Positions 34,246 through 40,028 of a DNA stretch of 64,000 nucleotides are shown here, piece after piece. The first letter of the stretch is position 1, and the number at the start of each line of letters is the position of its first letter. Below the pieces are notes generated by a model. The model saw nothing but the letters and a program-made list of their open reading frames with translations, was not told the origin of the DNA and made no database searches. Position numbers and translations under genes: made by a program. The DNA comes from Candidatus Saccharimonadales bacterium (GTDB taxonomy: Bacteria; Patescibacteriota; Saccharimonadia; Saccharimonadales; UBA10212), in contig JBEKOJ010000001.1 in NCBI GenBank assembly GCA_049521895.1, positions 354,717 to 418,716 of the forward strand. The letters are read 5' to 3'.

Positions 34246-34518
34246 TCAGATATCCAAAAATACAGTGATTTTATCGGCTTTGACGTGCATTACGCCGCGG
34301 CTAACCTTCATGTTGAAATCCGCCTTCTCGGGCATGCGCACGGTGATGGTACACGGAATCAGCAGCGTCATAAAATTTCTGTGGTGTGGCAGGACATCAA
34401 AAGGCCCGGTTTTGTTGGCGGCCGATAAGCTGACTGCCGGCCCCTCAAAATAAGTCCTGAAGGGGGCATAAATTTTTACTCGCATGGTGAGTTTATCTTG
34501 ATCCATGGCCGTATTCAA
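34246..34518 (-). CDS. atpC: F-type ATPase epsilon subunit (beta-sandwich only)
   Basis: 90 aa located after atpD; PFDVLPHH pattern; no C-terminal helical hairpin. Confidence 0.65.
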
Positions 34519-35825
34519 GAATTCAGTATGTCCTCTACGCCTTTTAGCATATCCGCCCGGCTGATATGCTCGCCCGTCTTGCCACTAAAACTTTCACTCA
34601 CATACATGTCCTGGGAGAAGAATTCGATTAGCTTGCGGGCCTTGGCAAAATCGTTACGATCGGCCAAAGACAGTTCGTTCTCGCCAATAATGGCAATGAT
34701 GTTTTTAAGTGATTCATACTTTTGTAGTAAGGTCTGAACCTTAACACTTAAATTATAGTGGCGCAGACCAACAGTTTCCGGATTAAGCAGGCTGGAGCCG
34801 CTGCGGATAAGGTCGACTGCCGGACGTATACCCTGTTCAGCCACCTTGCGGCTAAGTACGATGACGCCATCCAGTTCATGCTGGATCATTTGTACCGCCG
34901 GGTCAGATAAATCGTCGGCTGGCACATAAATGGTCTGTACGGTGGTGATAGAGCCATTTTCCGTGGAACTTAGACGGTCTTCAAAAGTTTTAACGTCAGA
35001 AAAAATCGTTGGTTCGTAACCACCTTCGTTGGGAATCTGCTCTAAAATAGTTGACAGTTCATTATGCGCCTGAATGTAACGATACATGTTATCGACAAAA
35101 AACAAGATATCTTTTTTCTCTTCATCGCGGAAATACTCAGCACTAGCCGTGGCCGATAACCCTACTAACACGCGCTGTACAGGATTTTGGTCCATCTGAC
35201 CAAAGAACATGCAGGTATTTTTGAGCAAATCACGCTCTTTTAGGGTTTCGTAGAGCTCGTGGCCTTCACGGATGCGCTCGCCAATACCGGCAAAAAAGCT
35301 TAGTCCTTGGCCACTTTTAGCAATATTATGAATCAGTTCCATGGTCAATACGGTTTTTCCTACACCAGCACCACCAATAATGCCGATCTTACGACCCTTC
35401 ACGAACGGCGTGAAAAAATCTATGACTTTGATACCAGTTTCCAAAATCTCGGCTTGGGCAGCCCGAAACGAGGTACGCGGCTGCAGCGGTTGCATGATAT
35501 TTTTGTATTTCAGCTCCGAGGGAGCTGGCAGCGGCTGGCCGTCCAGCGGGCGCCCCAGGGCATCCAACACCCGGCCGATAATGGCATTGCCCACCGGTAC
35601 GTTAATTCCGCGGCCAGTACGTTCAGCCGGCATATTTTTCTGGATCGACCGGTCGCCCATTACGTTAAGACAAACGGCTATGTTGTCCGGATCAAGTCTA
35701 TTGACTAGCAGCACGCTGTGCGCCTGGTTATGTACCGACAACAATTCGCCAATATCCGGGCCATCCTCATCAAATTGTACTGTCACTACAAGGTCGCGCA
35801 CCGACCTGACTGAGCCGATACTCAT
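34515..35825 (-). CDS. atpD: F-type ATPase beta subunit (short, 436 aa)
   Basis: Walker A GGAGVGKT, Walker B ILFFVDN, DELS-like DDLSDPA. Confidence 0.9.
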
Positions 35826-36673
35826 CCCGTTACCTTTCGCAGACCATTGATGATTTCTTTGAGTCGCTCGTCTTTTTGGTGGCGACGGGCGCGGTTATAA
35901 GACGTGTTCAGGTCATCGTATGACTCATCGGCTTTGTCGCGAGCGACAGTCATAGCTTTAAAACGGCTGGCGTACTGTGCTAGTTTAGATTCCAGAATAA
36001 CTTCACTCAAAGTAATTTGCATCATCGAACGCTCCAAGTGATCGACGACTTCGTAAGTACTTGGCTCGAAAAGATAAGTTTGTTCGCTAATTATTTCACC
36101 GCTGCCCCTAATATTACGTCCGCGTTCGGCGACCGCTGCGCTAAGTTCTATCTTCTTAACGTCCTGACTGGTTAGCGAAATATAAGTCTGATAATAAACT
36201 GTGGTGGAAGCATATTTTTGAGCCTCTACTACTAGCGGCATAACATTAATGTTGCGGTCCTGGGCTGGTAGTTTGAAACTTTTAACGACAGGTACGTGCG
36301 CCTGAGCCAGCTGGGTGGTACCATGATGACCAACCACGATAATATCGTTTTTCTGTGAATTGTAATTCTGCAGTGCCAGCTCGATAAGTTTCTGGTCGAT
36401 ATCACCACTCAAACTTCCCTCGCTGGTAATCAGAAGCATCAGATTTTTATTAATGACGCTGACTGCCAAGTGGCTGCGGCCAAAGTGGAACATTTCATCA
36501 ACCCGGATCTGTCGGTAAATTTTCCAGAGCTCTCCAAAAAATTTTTCTGAGTTTTCTACCTCGTTTTTGATCTGGCTAATATGCATGCTGGCAATGCCCT
36601 CAAAAGCGCCAGTAAGCTCGACGACGGTTCTTGTAGCATCGCGCTCCTGTGAAATCTCGTTAAGTTGGCGCAT
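35822..36673 (-). CDS. atpG: F-type ATPase gamma subunit
   Basis: 283 aa between alpha and beta; conserved C-terminal helix ([13 protein letters not shown]...[15 protein letters not shown]). Confidence 0.75.
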
Positions 36674-36677
36674 ATTT

Positions 36678-38123: not shown

Positions 38124-38583
38124 TTAGTGTCACCAGATATGGTTCCTGCTGCTTCAGACGAGTACGCAGGCTGAGGTCAAAAATCTTATTAGGTGTCCGG
38201 AGTACGCAGCCGGCGGCAATAGTCGGTTGCAAGCCTACTTGCACCAAGGTTTGCGGATGGATATTAATTCTAAGCCAGACTAATATGCGTTCCATAACCT
38301 GTGGCGAGGGCTCGCTGGCAAAACTGATGTGCAATAGCGGGGCGCTCTTAAGTACCTGGTCAAGTTTGTTATTTAGCTCCCCGCGCTGATTCTTATCCAG
38401 CAAGTTGAATTTGTTGCTTCTGGCCAAGCTATCAAGAGTGCGCGACAACCGCGGTGGTGTCATCGGCGTACCGCTTTGACGCGTAGCAACAGAAGTAAAA
38501 AAATCTTCCAAGTTGTTAAGCTCGCGGATCAAGCGCGCCACATCAATCTGGCTCATAACAGTGTTTGGGATCTTAAGTTCCAC
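38098..38583 (-). CDS. atpH: F-type ATPase delta (OSCP)-like subunit
   Basis: 161 aa; assigned from operon position and helical composition only. Confidence 0.5.
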   Translation of the reverse strand: MELKIPNTVMSQIDVARLIRELNNLEDFFTSVATRQSGTPMTPPRLSRTLDSLARSNKFNLLDKNQRGELNNKLDQVLKSAPLLHISFASEPSPQVMERILVWLRINIHPQTLVQVGLQPTIAAGCVLRTPNKIFDLSLRTRLKQQEPYLVTLIAGAAHGH

Positions 38584-39202
38584 GCTTGATATCCTCTAAA
38601 ATAGCCGGTTTATTAGCTTCCAGCTCCGCTAAGATATATTCCAACTGATCCGATAAATCTATCTGGTTGCCGATGGCCCTAAGCACATAGTGGTTGACGA
38701 TGCTGGCCATTTCAGTTTCAAAGGCGGCAACTATCCGGGCTTTTTGGGCTTCCGACTGCGTCTGTAGCTGAGTTTCCAGAAATTGGCGCTGTTGCTCGAT
38801 AGTGGTGATAGTTTTGTCGATTGAATCCAGTGCCAGTTTTTTAGCATCGGCAATCGATTGCTCGTATTTTTTAAACTCTTCCTGCAGTGTGCGCGTTATC
38901 TCAGAGCGCATATAGTCATTAAGCTGACTAGTGGTTTGGCGCAAATCCTGCTGCAAAAACATCGCATTTTCGCCAATAATCTTCTCGAAGTGCAGCCGCC
39001 CGCGGTTTCTTAACTCTTCGCGAAATTCATCATTAAAGATATGCTCTACATCTTTGCTAGCAGCGTTTTCAAGCCCAGTGGCAGGCAGTTTGCTCTGCCT
39101 GTCTGGACTACCCGAACTGCCAATTTTGCGAGCCAGCCAAATGAAAGCTGCCGTTGCTGCCAGCAGCAAGCCAATGATTAAAATTAGCCCACCCGTATCC
39201 AC
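38573..39202 (-). CDS. atpF: F-type ATPase b-like stalk subunit
   Basis: Single N-terminal TM followed by a long charged coiled helix; operon position. Confidence 0.5.
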   Translation of the reverse strand: MDTGGLILIIGLLLAATAAFIWLARKIGSSGSPDRQSKLPATGLENAASKDVEHIFNDEFREELRNRGRLHFEKIIGENAMFLQQDLRQTTSQLNDYMRSEITRTLQEEFKKYEQSIADAKKLALDSIDKTITTIEQQRQFLETQLQTQSEAQKARIVAAFETEMASIVNHYVLRAIGNQIDLSDQLEYILAELEANKPAILEDIKRGT

Positions 39203-39221
39203 AAAAATTAACCTGCTGTTT

Positions 39222-40028
39222 TCATAGCTTCAGTAATAAATATACTCCTATGACGCCTAAGCTTAAAACTGCTACTGCTACTATAACCACCTGCACCAAA
39301 CCGTTGAGTATGAAATGGCGGCTGAGAGGATTACGGCCAATGGCTATCATCGCGCTACGAATACCGACTATCAGGGCACCACAAGCGATCACTGCCGCTA
39401 CCAAAAATACGGCTAAAGCAGCATAGATACGCAGCGGGCTGACTTCTTTGCCAGCAATGGCGTCACCGGCACCTTTTAGAAACGAAGGTATGGCTACGGT
39501 ATTTTGCAAAAATGGATTGCGCTGAATAGATACGGTTACCTGTATCATACCAACCGCGGAACCGTTGCTACCGGAGTTCAGTACATTGCTGGTACCGTTA
39601 AATTTCTGTAGCGCTTGCCCCAAAACAAGCACTTGGCTATTACTGGCCTTGGCAGCAGTACCGTTAGTGCCTGATATGGATAGATAATCGCCAACGCTAA
39701 TAGGACCATTCTGGGTCGATACCAGTACTGGGTAGGTGCCGCTAGTAGCTACGAAGACCTGTTGGCCAGTTTGCCGCTGCAGTGTTAGAGGTGCCTGGCT
39801 AGGGTCGATTGATACGCCGTAAAGTTGCTGGGGCTGATTGGCCGGTGCTAGCTCTACCATATTGGTCGAACCGGGTTTGATAGCCACCACCCAGCCGGTT
39901 TTTATGGGACTCTGGGATGCAAAACTTTGCACGATAGTGTCAGCGCTGACACTGGCTGCTACCAGACTAAGGCCGGCAACTACTAGAGCGGCCAGAGGAA
40001 AGGTTATGCGGTGAAGCCATTTTTTCAT
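39222..40028 (-). CDS. secreted domain fused to a C-terminal two-helix hairpin resembling ATPase subunit c
   Basis: Signal peptide, ~190-aa ectodomain, then helix-IGRNP-helix (compare the c-subunit ARQP/RNP loop); no Asp/Glu in helix 2. Confidence 0.45.
   Translation of the reverse strand: MKKWLHRITFPLAALVVAGLSLVAASVSADTIVQSFASQSPIKTGWVVAIKPGSTNMVELAPANQPQQLYGVSIDPSQAPLTLQRQTGQQVFVATSGTYPVLVSTQNGPISVGDYLSISGTNGTAAKASNSQVLVLGQALQKFNGTSNVLNSGSNGSAVGMIQVTVSIQRNPFLQNTVAIPSFLKGAGDAIAGKEVSPLRIYAALAVFLVAAVIACGALIVGIRSAMIAIGRNPLSRHFILNGLVQVVIVAVAVLSLGVIGVYLLLKL

Follow-up and report, generated by a model that had tools for sequence, protein, structure and literature searches.

Gene content of the locus

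Is an atp-like operon that carries a secreted protein at the position of the c subunit, and no recognisable a or c gene of its own, still part of an ATP synthase? The question arises from the window analysed here, a stretch of 64,000 nucleotides from the genome of a Candidatus Saccharimonadales bacterium. Its ORF list places seven minus-strand genes at positions 34246-40028 (Table 1), in the order X268 (a 268-aa protein), b-like, delta, alpha, gamma, beta and short epsilon, as an earlier note on this DNA had read them. The gaps between these genes are at most 19 nt, and neighbours overlap at four of the six junctions. Upstream of X268, a 123-bp gap is followed by a class-V aminotransferase gene, the cysteine desulfurase that the earlier note had named as the next gene; its orthologue in locus L001 matches PF00266. 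In a Pfam search of 20 neighbouring genes the flanks proved to be housekeeping genes that give no hint on function, and phage genes were not found near the cluster. The alpha-like gene has an in-frame ATG five codons downstream of its TTG, which is an alternative start.

Table 1. Positions in the window of the seven genes and of the segments of X268
Feature	Length or residues	Position	Strand	Description
X268	268 aa	39222-40028	-	Proposed rotor-position subunit: signal peptide, phage-cement-like beta domain and c-homologous hairpin
X268 signal peptide	aa 1-29	39942-40028	-	Hydrophobic helix, residues 3-23, in AF2 model
X268 ectodomain	aa 30-195	39444-39941	-	Beta domain and short amphipathic helix
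X268 C-terminal hairpin	aa 196-268	39225-39443	-	c-subunit homologue, GRNPL loop, no carboxylate
b-position protein	209 aa	38573-39202	-	N-terminal TM helix and long helical rod; putative peripheral stalk
Delta/OSCP homologue	161 aa	38098-38583	-	OSCP family profile
Alpha-like non-catalytic subunit	481 aa	36678-38123	-	PF00006; TTG start
Gamma-like central stalk subunit	283 aa	35822-36673	-	PF00231
Beta-like catalytic subunit	436 aa	34515-35825	-	PF00006
Epsilon-like subunit	90 aa	34246-34518	-	PF02823; beta-sandwich only

The F1-type subunits

Judged from their sequences, alpha, beta, gamma, delta and epsilon are genuine F1/OSCP homologues with intact catalytic residues. Pfam and NCBIfam models recognise alpha (PF00006, E = 8e-65), beta (PF00006, E = 5.5e-66), gamma (a full-length match to PF00231, E = 1.7e-31) and the N-terminal domain of epsilon (PF02823, E = 2e-12, residues 12-88), and they recognise delta/OSCP weakly. 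The delta protein of the window alone matches PF00213 at E = 0.005; 16 of the 19 members of its family match OSCP (best E = 2e-9), and the family profile retrieves OSCP/delta chains from the PDB at E = 1e-6. None of the F1 subunits reaches its NCBIfam equivalog cut-off. The shortfall is wide for alpha (389 and 367 bits against atpA cut-offs of 554 and 484), gamma (90 against 194 for TIGR01146), epsilon (37.7 against 67 for TIGR01216) and delta, and slight for beta (429.6 against 462.85 for atpD). In a canonical Southlakia operon, unlike here, the source annotation calls the subunits F0F1 throughout.

Walker A, the catalytic Glu, Walker B and the Arg finger are invariant across 69-77 orthologues of alpha and beta. 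Across 77 alpha orthologues the conserved elements include the P-loop GD(S/N)K(S/T)GK(S/T) and, as Arg finger, SVTRVG; 69 beta orthologues share GGAGVGKT as Walker A, the catalytic motif GER(I)REG and the Asp of Walker B. The earlier description of the alpha P-loop as non-standard is correct in comparison with GDRQTGKT, but GDSKSGKS, the form in the window, conforms to GxxxxGK[ST].

Two subunits are shortened, as had been noticed before: beta lacks about 25-35 C-terminal residues and has GENELSPxD in place of DELSEED, and epsilon consists of the beta-sandwich domain without the C-terminal helical (inhibitory) domain. The epsilon C-terminal domain and DELSEED of beta form a pair that mediates inhibition of hydrolysis by epsilon. 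Because the former is missing and the latter altered, the enzyme would be expected to work in the direction of hydrolysis.

X268 and the b-position protein

X268 has more than 1000 homologues, and every named one is from Saccharibacteria; no NCBIfam model matches it. The AlphaFold2 model of the protein alone (pLDDT 85) bears out the division into signal peptide, ectodomain and helix-loop-helix that the earlier note had drawn. Cleavage would fall at an AxA-type site between VSA and D (residues 29/30); the nearly invariant A29 precedes a conserved (D/E)T(I/L)V. In Foldseek searches the ectodomain, whose beta domain spans residues 33-170 of the model, resembles phage capsid cement/decoration proteins (8pkh, E = 4e-5; 9ocb; 5wk1) and also domains of phage appendages or tails (BFVD, E as low as 7e-10). 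One homologue, P0003, matches Pfam PF22758 (Phage_cement) over residues 32-156 at E = 9e-6, with 26.2 bits against a cut-off of 27. No PHROG matched the ectodomain. Residues of both the loop and the ectodomain are invariant among X268 homologues.

The C-terminal hairpin comprises helices 198-232 and 237-267, with the loop G231-R-N-P-L235. All five loop residues (G231, R232, N233, P234 and L235) are invariant in the X268 alignment, in keeping with the c-like character that had been ascribed to the IGRNP loop. The model also has c-subunit topology, in that its N-terminus lies outside and its loop inside, and structural superposition of the hairpin on c subunits gives TM 0.87 and rmsd 1.4 Å for 9itt_H. 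The Saccharibacteria hairpin profile alone gave no significant match to c subunits. The sequence link runs through X proteins of other candidate-phyla lineages, to which X268 is homologous over its full length (BLASTP, E = 2e-11). When the hairpin profile of these relatives was searched against the whole PDB, the top seven matches were all F-type c subunits, the top six with E = 1.9e-4 to 4.6e-3 and the whole hairpin aligned, and A. woodii c2 was among the matches. In hhalign comparisons with c, the same profile reached P = 2e-5, 8.7 sd above column-shuffled controls (10.5 ± 2.2). These results support homology of the X268 hairpin to c subunits. They also strengthen the central idea of the earlier note, a c-like hairpin joined to a secreted domain in the place of c.

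The earlier note had also seen no Asp or Glu at the ion-binding position of helix 2, and among 50 homologues no acidic residue is conserved in this helix. The residue 18 positions past the loop Pro is Val252, and in the profile of the relatives the c-subunit Glu is aligned to Leu/Ile. A hydrophobic residue thus stands where c subunits have their ion-binding carboxylate. Because the hairpin is a c homologue without this carboxylate, the remodelled, non-proton-coupled complex that had been raised as one of two alternatives gains support.

The b-position gene is always second in the cluster (80 loci). Its product is modelled from the single sequence with helices at 4-28, 58-146 and 151-207, and sequence and profile searches revealed no significant similarity to b subunits. 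Close to the membrane it carries a near-invariant motif of 45 residues, DVEHIFNDEFREELRNRGRLHFEKIIGENAMFLQQDLR, which suggests a specific new interface. Together with the delta/OSCP homologue it is a putative peripheral stalk.

Conservation of the cluster and the missing a and c genes

We retrieved 80 species loci of the 240 GTDB species matched, all Saccharibacteria. The seven-gene order is identical in every one of them, with X268 always first, and the arrangement is therefore far beyond chance. The X268 proteins of other species are only 36-58% identical to that of the window. Gamma or beta ORFs are split in three of the 80 loci. Four loci outside the Saccharibacteria family share the architecture, likewise without an a subunit.

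In line with the earlier remark that neither atpB nor a free atpE lies upstream, no a or c homologue was found in the 64-kb window, either when phmmer scanned all six-frame ORFs with the E. coli subunits as queries or by Pfam on the 20 neighbouring genes. The same holds for ±10 kb around the cluster in all 80 retrieved loci, so that linkage to atpB or atpE is absent across about 85 loci. A published COG table lists, for the Saccharibacterium GCA_001790445, one c, two alpha, two beta, two gamma, one delta, two epsilon, one a and one b, and in the same table none of 33 CPR genomes has alpha, beta, gamma and epsilon but lacks a. Because alpha, beta, gamma and epsilon are doubled in GCA_001790445 and a, b, c and delta are single, the cluster is probably, by analogy with this one count table for another genome, a second system beside a canonical F1Fo elsewhere in the genome. 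The a and c subunits would then probably be encoded in that separate canonical operon.

A proposed mechanism and its alternatives

We propose, and give it about an even chance of being right, that the cluster encodes a self-contained F-type rotary ATPase derivative that hydrolyses ATP, translocates no ions and works on an extracellular crown. The alpha3beta3 head, with its catalytic chemistry intact, would turn a gamma-epsilon shaft seated on the GRNP loops that an X268 oligomer, most likely a ring, exposes to the cytoplasm. X268, a c homologue, has lost its membrane-buried carboxylate and gained a secreted, phage-cement-like N-terminal beta domain; the crown on the outside of the membrane would consist of these beta domains. 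The delta/OSCP homologue and the single-TM helical rod at the b position would serve as peripheral stalk. Since there is neither an a subunit nor an ion site, torque or strain from ATP hydrolysis would cross the membrane to the crown, which might do mechanical work on the cell surface. The lack of a proton-channel subunit, the rotor without an ion site and the gain of an outward-facing domain indicate that the enzyme probably does not make ATP but spends it on mechanical work at the surface of the cell. We found no prior description of such a system in the literature.

True rotation is not assured, because there is no a subunit to keep stator and rotor together in the membrane. The same gap could reflect a non-rotary machine, in which the b-like rod clamps an X268 oligomer directly and hydrolysis causes a limited twist or a conformational switch, imagined as a gate or as an assembly or extraction device without continuous rotation. 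The new interface suggested by the b-like motif would suit such a clamp. So would the ectodomain, phage cement-like domains being bracing elements that are usually oligomeric. The mycoplasma G1-ATPase shows F1-like heads in non-classical assemblies (PMC11864180). We nevertheless consider a non-rotary machine unlikely, given that full-length, conserved gamma and epsilon have been kept, as for a turning shaft, and that peripheral-stalk parts (the delta/OSCP C-terminal domain) are retained too.

It is quite improbable that the cluster belongs to the sole ATP synthase of the cell, with ordinary a and c encoded elsewhere and with X268 as an accessory or unrelated envelope protein that only shares the transcript. 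The absence of a and c in this genome covers 64 kb, the b-like and delta proteins point to a stator, for which an a subunit is normally required, and the beta score is close to the atpD cut-off. However, X268 occupies the c position in the 80 Saccharibacteria and in the four loci of other lineages and is itself a c homologue, and the remaining F1 subunits score far below cut-offs at which canonical Saccharibacteria subunits are recognised. The doubled subunits of GCA_001790445 and the COG table as a whole also speak against it.

We give equally little credence to a hybrid use, in which X268 would be built into the c-ring of the canonical enzyme or work together with its a subunit, although its c homology and the A. 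woodii c2 match would be in keeping with this. Such a mixed rotor, comparable to rings with carboxylate-free c copies, would modulate the ion/ATP ratio of a proton-coupled enzyme. A mere ring component, however, has no need of a complete set of alpha, beta, gamma, delta, epsilon and b-like partners of its own, an ectodomain of about 165 residues per ring member would have to fit beside the a subunit, and atpB and atpE are unlinked to the cluster. Finally, decay of a functionless duplicate atp operon, to which the few split ORFs and the missing parts (subunit a, the carboxylate of c, the C-terminal domain of epsilon and the C-terminus of beta) might point, is effectively refuted by the conservation pattern, in which ORFs are intact, catalytic residues stay invariant in 69-77 species despite the divergence of X268, the X268 loop and ectodomain residues are invariant and homologous clusters occur in other lineages.

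Relation to known systems

The rotary derivative that we favour shares with canonical F1Fo (atpI-B-E-F-H-A-G-D-C) the order b-delta-alpha-gamma-beta-epsilon, the homologous subunits alpha, beta, gamma, delta and epsilon, whose catalytic residues are intact, and a c-type subunit in the rotor position that has an R(N/Q)P loop and crosses the membrane in the same orientation. It differs in having no a subunit, a c homologue that lacks the ion-binding carboxylate and is extended by a signal peptide and an ectodomain, an epsilon without its C-terminal domain, a truncated beta with changed DELSEED and a b that is not recognisable. N-ATPases (alternate F1Fo, TIGR03305/03324) are likewise second F-type operons besides a bona fide ATP synthase. 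They retain a and c with the ion site and add AtpQ/AtpR, and their models were widely missed (408.9 bits for window beta against the alt_F1F0 beta cut-off of 752, and 304.9 against 750.5).

The cluster is analogous to the mycoplasma F1-like X0 ATPases but is not a member of them. The Type 3 ATPase (MSC_0618/0619, MMCAP2_0575-0581) is also encoded by a seven-gene cluster, combines alpha-, beta-, gamma- and epsilon-like subunits with non-Fo membrane partners, and occurs beside a canonical F1Fo in a genome-reduced, host-dependent bacterium, with a cell-surface task (PMC3369863, PMC12994834). One of its partners is built like X268, combining a signal peptide and an ectodomain with two TM helices at the C-terminus, and window alpha and beta have high, sub-threshold scores against the MSC_0619 and MSC_0618 models. 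In contrast to our cluster, the Type 3 order is 12-TM protein, small cytoplasmic protein, gamma, epsilon, SP-2TM protein, alpha and beta, with no b- or delta-like genes and an alpha without the N-terminal helix; it is reported as mycoplasma-specific and linked to MIB-MIP, which is absent here. In the M. mobile Type 2 or G1-ATPase (MMOB1660/1670), an F1-like alpha/beta/gamma head is re-used as force generator, as proposed here, and G1 beta (9io5_A) is among the PDB matches of window beta. It differs in forming dimeric chains inside the cell and in the large N-terminal extension of its beta, its models are missed (331.8 bits for window alpha against the MMOB1660 cut-off of 600, and 339.5 against 850), and the literature consulted describes no c-like or X268-like subunit for it (PMC11864180). 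With the phage cement proteins (PF22758, E217 gp24 and Pam3 gp6; 8pkh, 9ocb, 5wk1) the X268 ectodomain shares the beta fold; unlike them, it is cellular, secreted and anchored in the membrane by a c-type hairpin.

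Gene cluster and chromosomal setting

The seven ORFs that begin with the gene for the 268-aa protein X268 are separated by gaps of at most 19 nt and overlap at four of their six junctions, so they probably form a single operon. We call this arrangement, X-b-delta-alpha-gamma-beta-epsilon, the X-type cluster, with X denoting X268 and its homologues. Promoter and terminator scans gave a signal no higher than background. Read from its TTG start, the alpha ORF shares 26 nt with delta; an ATG in frame, five codons further on, could plausibly be the true start. The epsilon ORF also starts with TTG and has an internal Met at codon 12, just ahead of the conserved beta-sandwich.

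A class-V aminotransferase gene lies 123 bp from the X268 gene, with MetRS and TatD further upstream and MnmA downstream. The ~30 kb around the cluster is housekeeping in content (UvrA, Obg, MltG/YceG, RuvX, FtsA-like, AlaRS, BacA, KsgA, PcrA, TIM, PGK and tmRNA), and the named homologues of X268 are all annotated as Candidatus Saccharibacteria or Saccharimonadales. The window is therefore core chromosome of a Saccharibacterium (TM7, Patescibacteria). For two large ORFs in it (573 and 430 aa) Pfam gave no match at E <= 1e-5; the longer one comes after the FtsA-like gene, has its orientation, and runs 4 nt into the RuvX gene directly downstream.

Coordinates of features in the window and, where a locus handle (L) precedes them, in related contigs
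Feature	Location	Strand	Details
X-type cluster, seven ORFs	34246-40028	-	268, 209, 161, 481, 283, 436 and 90 codons (ORF layout)
X268 gene	39222-40028	-	first gene
b-position gene	38573-39202	-	209 aa
Motif DVEHIFNDEFREELRNRGRLHFEKIIGENAMFLQQDLR of the b-position protein	38939-39052	-	residues 51-88
alpha ORF	36678-38123	-	from the TTG start
epsilon ORF	34246-34518	-	from the TTG start
tmRNA gene	46685-47091	-	87.5 bits
tRNA gene group	1510-10504		seven of the nine tRNA genes of the window (1.5-10.5 kb)
573-aa ORF	27302-29023	-	
430-aa ORF	52133-53425	-	
Zn-ribbon protein gene	L084:4356-5051	same as X gene	231 aa
Zn-ribbon protein gene	L086:9117-9842	same as X gene	241 aa
GIY-YIG nuclease gene	L086:11424-11663		79 aa, between b-like and delta genes
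Ribosomal-protein and NusG/SecE genes	L082:11641-12725		adjoin X-type cluster
Ribosomal-protein and NusG/SecE genes	L087:3727-4887 and 14965-17338		adjoin X-type cluster
Atypical F-like cluster	L085:173-11594		Mycoplasmatales MAG JBOFGK010000010.1

Catalytic head and central shaft

The 481-aa and 436-aa proteins match Pfam ATP-synt_ab as alpha and beta (E = 8e-65 and 5.5e-66), the 283-aa protein is a full-length gamma (PF00231, E = 1.7e-31), and the 90-aa protein is an epsilon reduced to its beta-sandwich (PF02823, E = 2e-12), without the C-terminal helical domain. The 161-aa protein of the window is by itself only marginally OSCP-like (PF00213, E = 0.005); in its family, 16 of 19 members match PF00213 with E down to 2e-9, and a PDB search with a profile of the family finds OSCP/delta chains (E = 1e-6). 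Aligned to solved F1 structures in the PDB, beta retains GGAGVGKT, the catalytic Glu of GER-x-REG and the Walker B Asp, and alpha retains its arginine finger and a P-loop. The earlier note had described this P-loop, GDSKSGKS, as non-standard; the motif is indeed present, yet it is a valid P-loop and is conserved in orthologues.

The note's reading of beta as short and of epsilon as lacking its helical domain was confirmed. Beta is shorter by 25-35 residues, and its DELSEED loop has become GENELS(P/L)xD. Inhibition of ATP hydrolysis is mediated jointly by the epsilon C-terminal domain and DELSEED. Because both are lost here, the sequences fit an enzyme that would be dedicated to hydrolysis.

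All five of these subunits fall below the NCBIfam cut-offs for their canonical counterparts: alpha scores 389 and 367 bits against equivalog cut-offs of 554 and 484, beta 429.6 against 462.85 (atpD), gamma 90 against 194, delta 18-20 against 57-115 and epsilon 37.7 against 67.

X268 as a c-subunit homologue

The free c subunit of ~70-90 aa, with its helix-2 Asp/Glu, is replaced in this cluster by the C-terminus of the secreted 268-aa protein. In the AlphaFold2 model of X268 (pLDDT 85) the signal helix is followed by a beta domain (33-170), then by a short helix and finally by a hairpin of two long helices (198-232 and 237-267). More than 1000 homologues exist, and in an alignment of 50 of them G231-R-N-P-L235 is invariant, Arg224 is nearly so and the C-terminus YLLL(K/R) is conserved. 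With a signal peptide predicted to be cleavable, the N-terminus and ectodomain would lie outside, the GRNP loop in the cytoplasm and the C-terminus outside; this predicted topology is exactly that of an F-type c subunit.

Superposition of the X268 hairpin on c subunits gives TM values of 0.82-0.89 and an rmsd of 1.2-1.5 A, which any helical hairpin might reach. A profile of Saccharibacteria hairpins found zero c subunits among its PDB or Pfam matches. Compared with c directly by hhalign, the Saccharibacteria hairpin gave E = 0.17, which fell to 0.0078 when 82 sequences were used, and in every hhalign alignment the RNP of the X268 hairpin was in register with the RQP of c.

An exhaustive representative search with beta returned, as its best non-family matches, proteins of 42-46% identity that share the unusual GE-x-ELS motif. 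The contigs carrying them (L082, L084, L086 and L087) have the same seven-gene architecture. In each, the product of the first gene again combines a signal peptide and a beta domain with a hairpin, whose loops, for example KGVEAIGRNPLAR and KGVEGIGRNPLAR, are visibly nearer than that of X268 to the c consensus (A/T)(V/I)EG(I/V)ARQPE. These non-Saccharibacteria X proteins are full-length X268 homologues (BLASTP E = 2e-11 and 0.002). Their family counts at least 717 proteins, including one named Candidatus Nealsonbacteria; L084 and L086 are referred to as Parcubacteria-type, and the taxonomy of all four loci goes back to this one named protein.

We searched a profile of 25 non-Saccharibacteria X hairpins against all 177,635 distinct PDB sequences. 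The top seven matches were all F-type c subunits, aligned over both helices: Spirulina c (E = 1.9e-4), four chloroplast c (5e-4 to 1e-3), Chloroflexus c (4.6e-3) and A. woodii c2 (0.12). With hhalign the same relatives matched c at P = 2e-5 (probability 77%), with a score of 29.7 against 10.5 +/- 2.2 (maximum 21) in 100 column-shuffled controls, or 8.7 sd above them; the c side of hhalign consisted of nine c sequences, of which the PDB-wide search is independent. Since X268 is linked at full length by BLASTP to relatives whose hairpin profile finds c subunits, it is by these comparisons, transitively via those relatives, a c-subunit homologue in which the ion site has disappeared and a secreted domain has been added at the N-terminus. 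The proposal of a c-like hairpin fused to a secreted domain at the c position is thereby upheld.

The ion-binding Glu of c (FMEAL) is aligned to Leu/Ile in the non-Saccharibacteria X hairpins. In X268 the equivalent position is Val252, 18 residues past Pro234, and nowhere in helix 2 is an acidic residue conserved among the 50 homologues, as the earlier note had read from the single sequence when it described a helix 2 without the ion-binding carboxylate.

Ectodomain of X268

In Foldseek searches the beta domain of X268 matched phage capsid cement or decoration proteins (Borrelia phage BB1, Sf11, TW1, T1 and HFTV1) with E down to 4e-5, and in BFVD it matched phage appendage and tail domains with E down to 7e-10. 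A close X268 homologue falls just under the Pfam Phage_cement threshold over the full domain (26.2 vs 27 bits, E = 9e-6); PHROGs gave no match to the X268 ectodomain. The predicted cement-protein-like fold suggests that the ectodomain serves in bracing or oligomerising rather than catalysis.

Three Parcubacteria-type X proteins (P0374, P0378 and P0395) match Pfam Peptidase_G2, the intramolecular-chaperone autoproteolytic domain of phage pre-neck appendages, at residues 28-76, the start of the ectodomain (E = 1e-6 to 2e-5, covering profile positions 52-99 of 228 only). The match raises the possibility that the ectodomain is processed.

The b-position protein

The 209-aa protein constantly occupies the b position and, in a single-sequence AF2 model, consists of an N-terminal TM helix and ~150 residues of long helical rod. 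No homology to b was shown by Pfam, PDB profile search, hhalign or Foldseek on that model: PF00430 was matched by one of 15 family members (E = 0.017), and the hhalign score of the family against E. coli b lay inside the shuffled-control range. We therefore treat it as a putative peripheral-stalk b subunit, assigned by position and architecture. Beyond the TM helix, and separated from it by a variable linker, lies the near-invariant motif DVEHIFNDEFREELRNRGRLHFEKIIGENAMFLQQDLR, which across Saccharibacteria is much better conserved than other parts of the cluster and is missing from the Parcubacteria-type b-like proteins. This membrane-proximal motif may mark a new interface, either a stator-rotor or a stator-envelope contact.

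Absence of subunit a near the cluster

The earlier note had reported no a and no free c upstream, and this holds over a wider range. We detected no homologue of subunit a or c in the 64-kb window and no canonical a or c within +/-10 kb of 81 loci (1.36 Mb, searched with the E. coli a and c sequences as well as an HMM of the c subunit). MetRS-TatD-CsdA synteny is kept upstream in 64-81 loci, and because such flanks are not independent genome samples, the Saccharibacteria scan says little about the rest of these genomes. In the four non-Saccharibacteria loci, too, no a subunit lies upstream of the cluster, the neighbours there being an opposite-strand giant protein, a Zn-ribbon/transposase-like protein (twice) or ribosomal protein genes.

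The two Zn-ribbon proteins (L084 and L086), considered as candidate a subunits, were rejected as soluble. They are homologous and IS1595-transposase-like (MxxxKCPKCF...WKT.D.RLKCKNC...), and are encoded directly upstream of the X gene. Recurring in two independent Parcubacteria-type loci, this gene may encode a conserved partner or a regulator, or may be a hitch-hiker that recurs. In L086 a GIY-YIG nuclease gene interrupts an X-type cluster that is otherwise intact. The ribosomal-protein genes that adjoin the clusters of L082 and L087 are those of L1, L11, L10 and L7/L12, and the L082 cluster also adjoins a 5046-aa giant protein.

Proposed function

F-type ATPases are defined by the coupling of F1 chemistry to ion flow via the a/c interface. 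In the best-supported reading, the X-type complex would be an F-type-derived ATPase that keeps a head predicted to be catalytically competent, a shaft and a peripheral stalk, but lacks both halves of the a/c mechanism, subunit a and the c ion site, and so cannot move ions by it. The GRNP loops of an X268 oligomer would be gripped by the shaft in the way that gamma and epsilon engage the RQP loops of a c-ring, and the ectodomains would form a crown outside the cell to which the torque is passed.

Beyond this, we tentatively propose an ATP-powered rotating surface crown, widespread in the Patescibacteria and found in Saccharibacteria and at least Nealsonbacteria-type Parcubacteria. In it, F1 would spin or twist a carboxylate-free c-ring with one phage-cement-like ectodomain on each subunit, and the crown would serve the envelope or the interaction with a host. 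Alongside synthases/pumps and the mycoplasma F1-like X0 systems, such a complex would make up a third functional class of F-type machine, and it would be a natural case of a rotary ATPase uncoupled from ion gradients; we hold this fuller picture to be possible rather than probable. The evidence leaves room for a non-rotary variant in which the complex clamps and twists: without an a subunit, the torque would have to be resisted in the membrane by other means, and the near-invariant motif of the b-like protein is a possible contact for this.

If the complex assembles as proposed, it would be an F-type architecture re-purposed as a transmembrane mechanical transducer beyond Mollicutes and a minimal natural system for the role of the c-ring without protons. 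It would also point to a surface machine so far overlooked in these ultrasmall epibionts, whose ways of interacting with their hosts are for the most part poorly understood.

Relation to a canonical ATP synthase

In the COG count table of Mahendrarajah et al. 2023, Saccharibacterium GCA_001790445 has two each of alpha, beta, gamma and epsilon and one each of c, delta, a and b. These counts are what a canonical operon plus one X-type cluster would give, since the b, delta and X genes of the latter escape COG assignment; the extra set draws no comment in that paper. The same table lists one of each subunit for RAAC3_TM7_1, and none of its 33 CPR genomes has alpha, beta, gamma and epsilon without an a subunit. 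The cultured Saccharibacterium Southlakia epibionticum has a canonical operon, atpZ-a-c-b-delta-alpha-gamma-beta-epsilon (SEML1_0349-0358), annotated as F0F1 subunits throughout; this canonical set stands alone in its genome and is dispensable in culture.

We consider it fairly probable that the window's genome also has a canonical F1Fo. That the X-type cluster is instead the sole synthase, with a and c encoded elsewhere, we think improbable; the doubled subunits of GCA_001790445 speak against it. We give as little weight to a hybrid ring with a canonical enzyme, to which an X-type cluster would bring an F1 set of its own. Metabolic reconstructions that take alpha, beta, gamma and epsilon KOs or COGs in these bacteria for a 'nearly complete F-type ATPase' may be scoring the X-type cluster and not a synthase.

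Distribution and conservation

Relatives of X268 turned up in 240 species when one genome per GTDB species was scanned. The 80 loci that we retrieved are all from Saccharibacteria, a few evidently mis-binned, and every complete one has the order X-b-delta-alpha-gamma-beta-epsilon, so the gene neighbourhood of the window recurs in related genomes as the earlier note had suggested checking. Across 69-77 orthologues the Walker A motif, catalytic Glu, Walker B and alpha arginine finger are invariant or nearly so, in species whose X268 is only 36-58% identical to that of the window. The whole F1 and both stalks appear, from sequence conservation, to be under purifying selection in hundreds of species, with the ion path dismantled and the rotor subunit prolonged to the cell exterior. 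A decaying operon copy would account for the missing ion path, and against this constancy of the catalytic residues we regard it as scarcely credible. In three of the 80 loci (L031, L047 and L073) gamma or beta is in two ORFs, which a frameshift, assembly error or occasional pseudogenisation could explain.

Comparison with other F-type derivatives

The X-type cluster has the alpha/beta catalytic motifs, gamma, epsilon and delta/OSCP in common with canonical F1Fo but no counterpart of subunit a (PF00119, with its stator Arg, normally first in the operon). With F-type c subunits X268 shares the hairpin, the outside termini and the cytoplasmic R(Q/N)P loop.

The mycoplasma Type 3 F1-like ATPases follow a similar logic, in that an extra alpha, beta, gamma and epsilon set accompanies a membrane subunit in which a signal peptide and an ectodomain precede two TM helices at the C-terminus; they have been shown to have ATPase activity and to act in a surface process, MIB-MIP function (PMC3369863, PMC12994834). 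They consist of a 12-TM protein, a small cytoplasmic protein, gamma, epsilon, the SP-plus-2TM protein, alpha and beta, without b or delta. The X-type cluster differs in gene order and taxon, lacks the 12-TM subunit and has b- and delta-like genes, so that only the SP-ectodomain-2TM architecture is common to both. Its NCBIfam scores are also under the cut-offs for Type 3 (MSC_0618/MSC_0619, 382.8 vs 570 and 244 vs 520) and for Type 2, or G1-ATPase (MMOB1660/1670, PMC11864180; 331.8 vs 600 and 339.5 vs 850). Therefore, the cluster is not one of the mycoplasma F1-like X0 ATPases. Identity with N-ATPase was likewise rejected: scores were far under cut-off (TIGR03305, 408.9 vs 752; TIGR03324, 304.9 vs 750.5; TIGR03323, 37.9 vs 282), and the ORF layout has none of its a, c, AtpQ and AtpR genes.

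In the literature searched, F1-like ATPases are treated for Mollicutes only, the term is never paired with Saccharibacteria or other CPR taxa, and 'minimal complexes' of CPR get passing mention only. The Mycoplasmatales MAG has another atypical F-like cluster, without delta, whose products in order are 1755 aa, 505 aa, 81 aa (a weak ATP-synt_C match), 244 aa, alpha-like (422), gamma (251), beta (453) and 80 aa. This arrangement, with a free c-like gene, hints at a broader and little-explored diversity of F-type derivatives.
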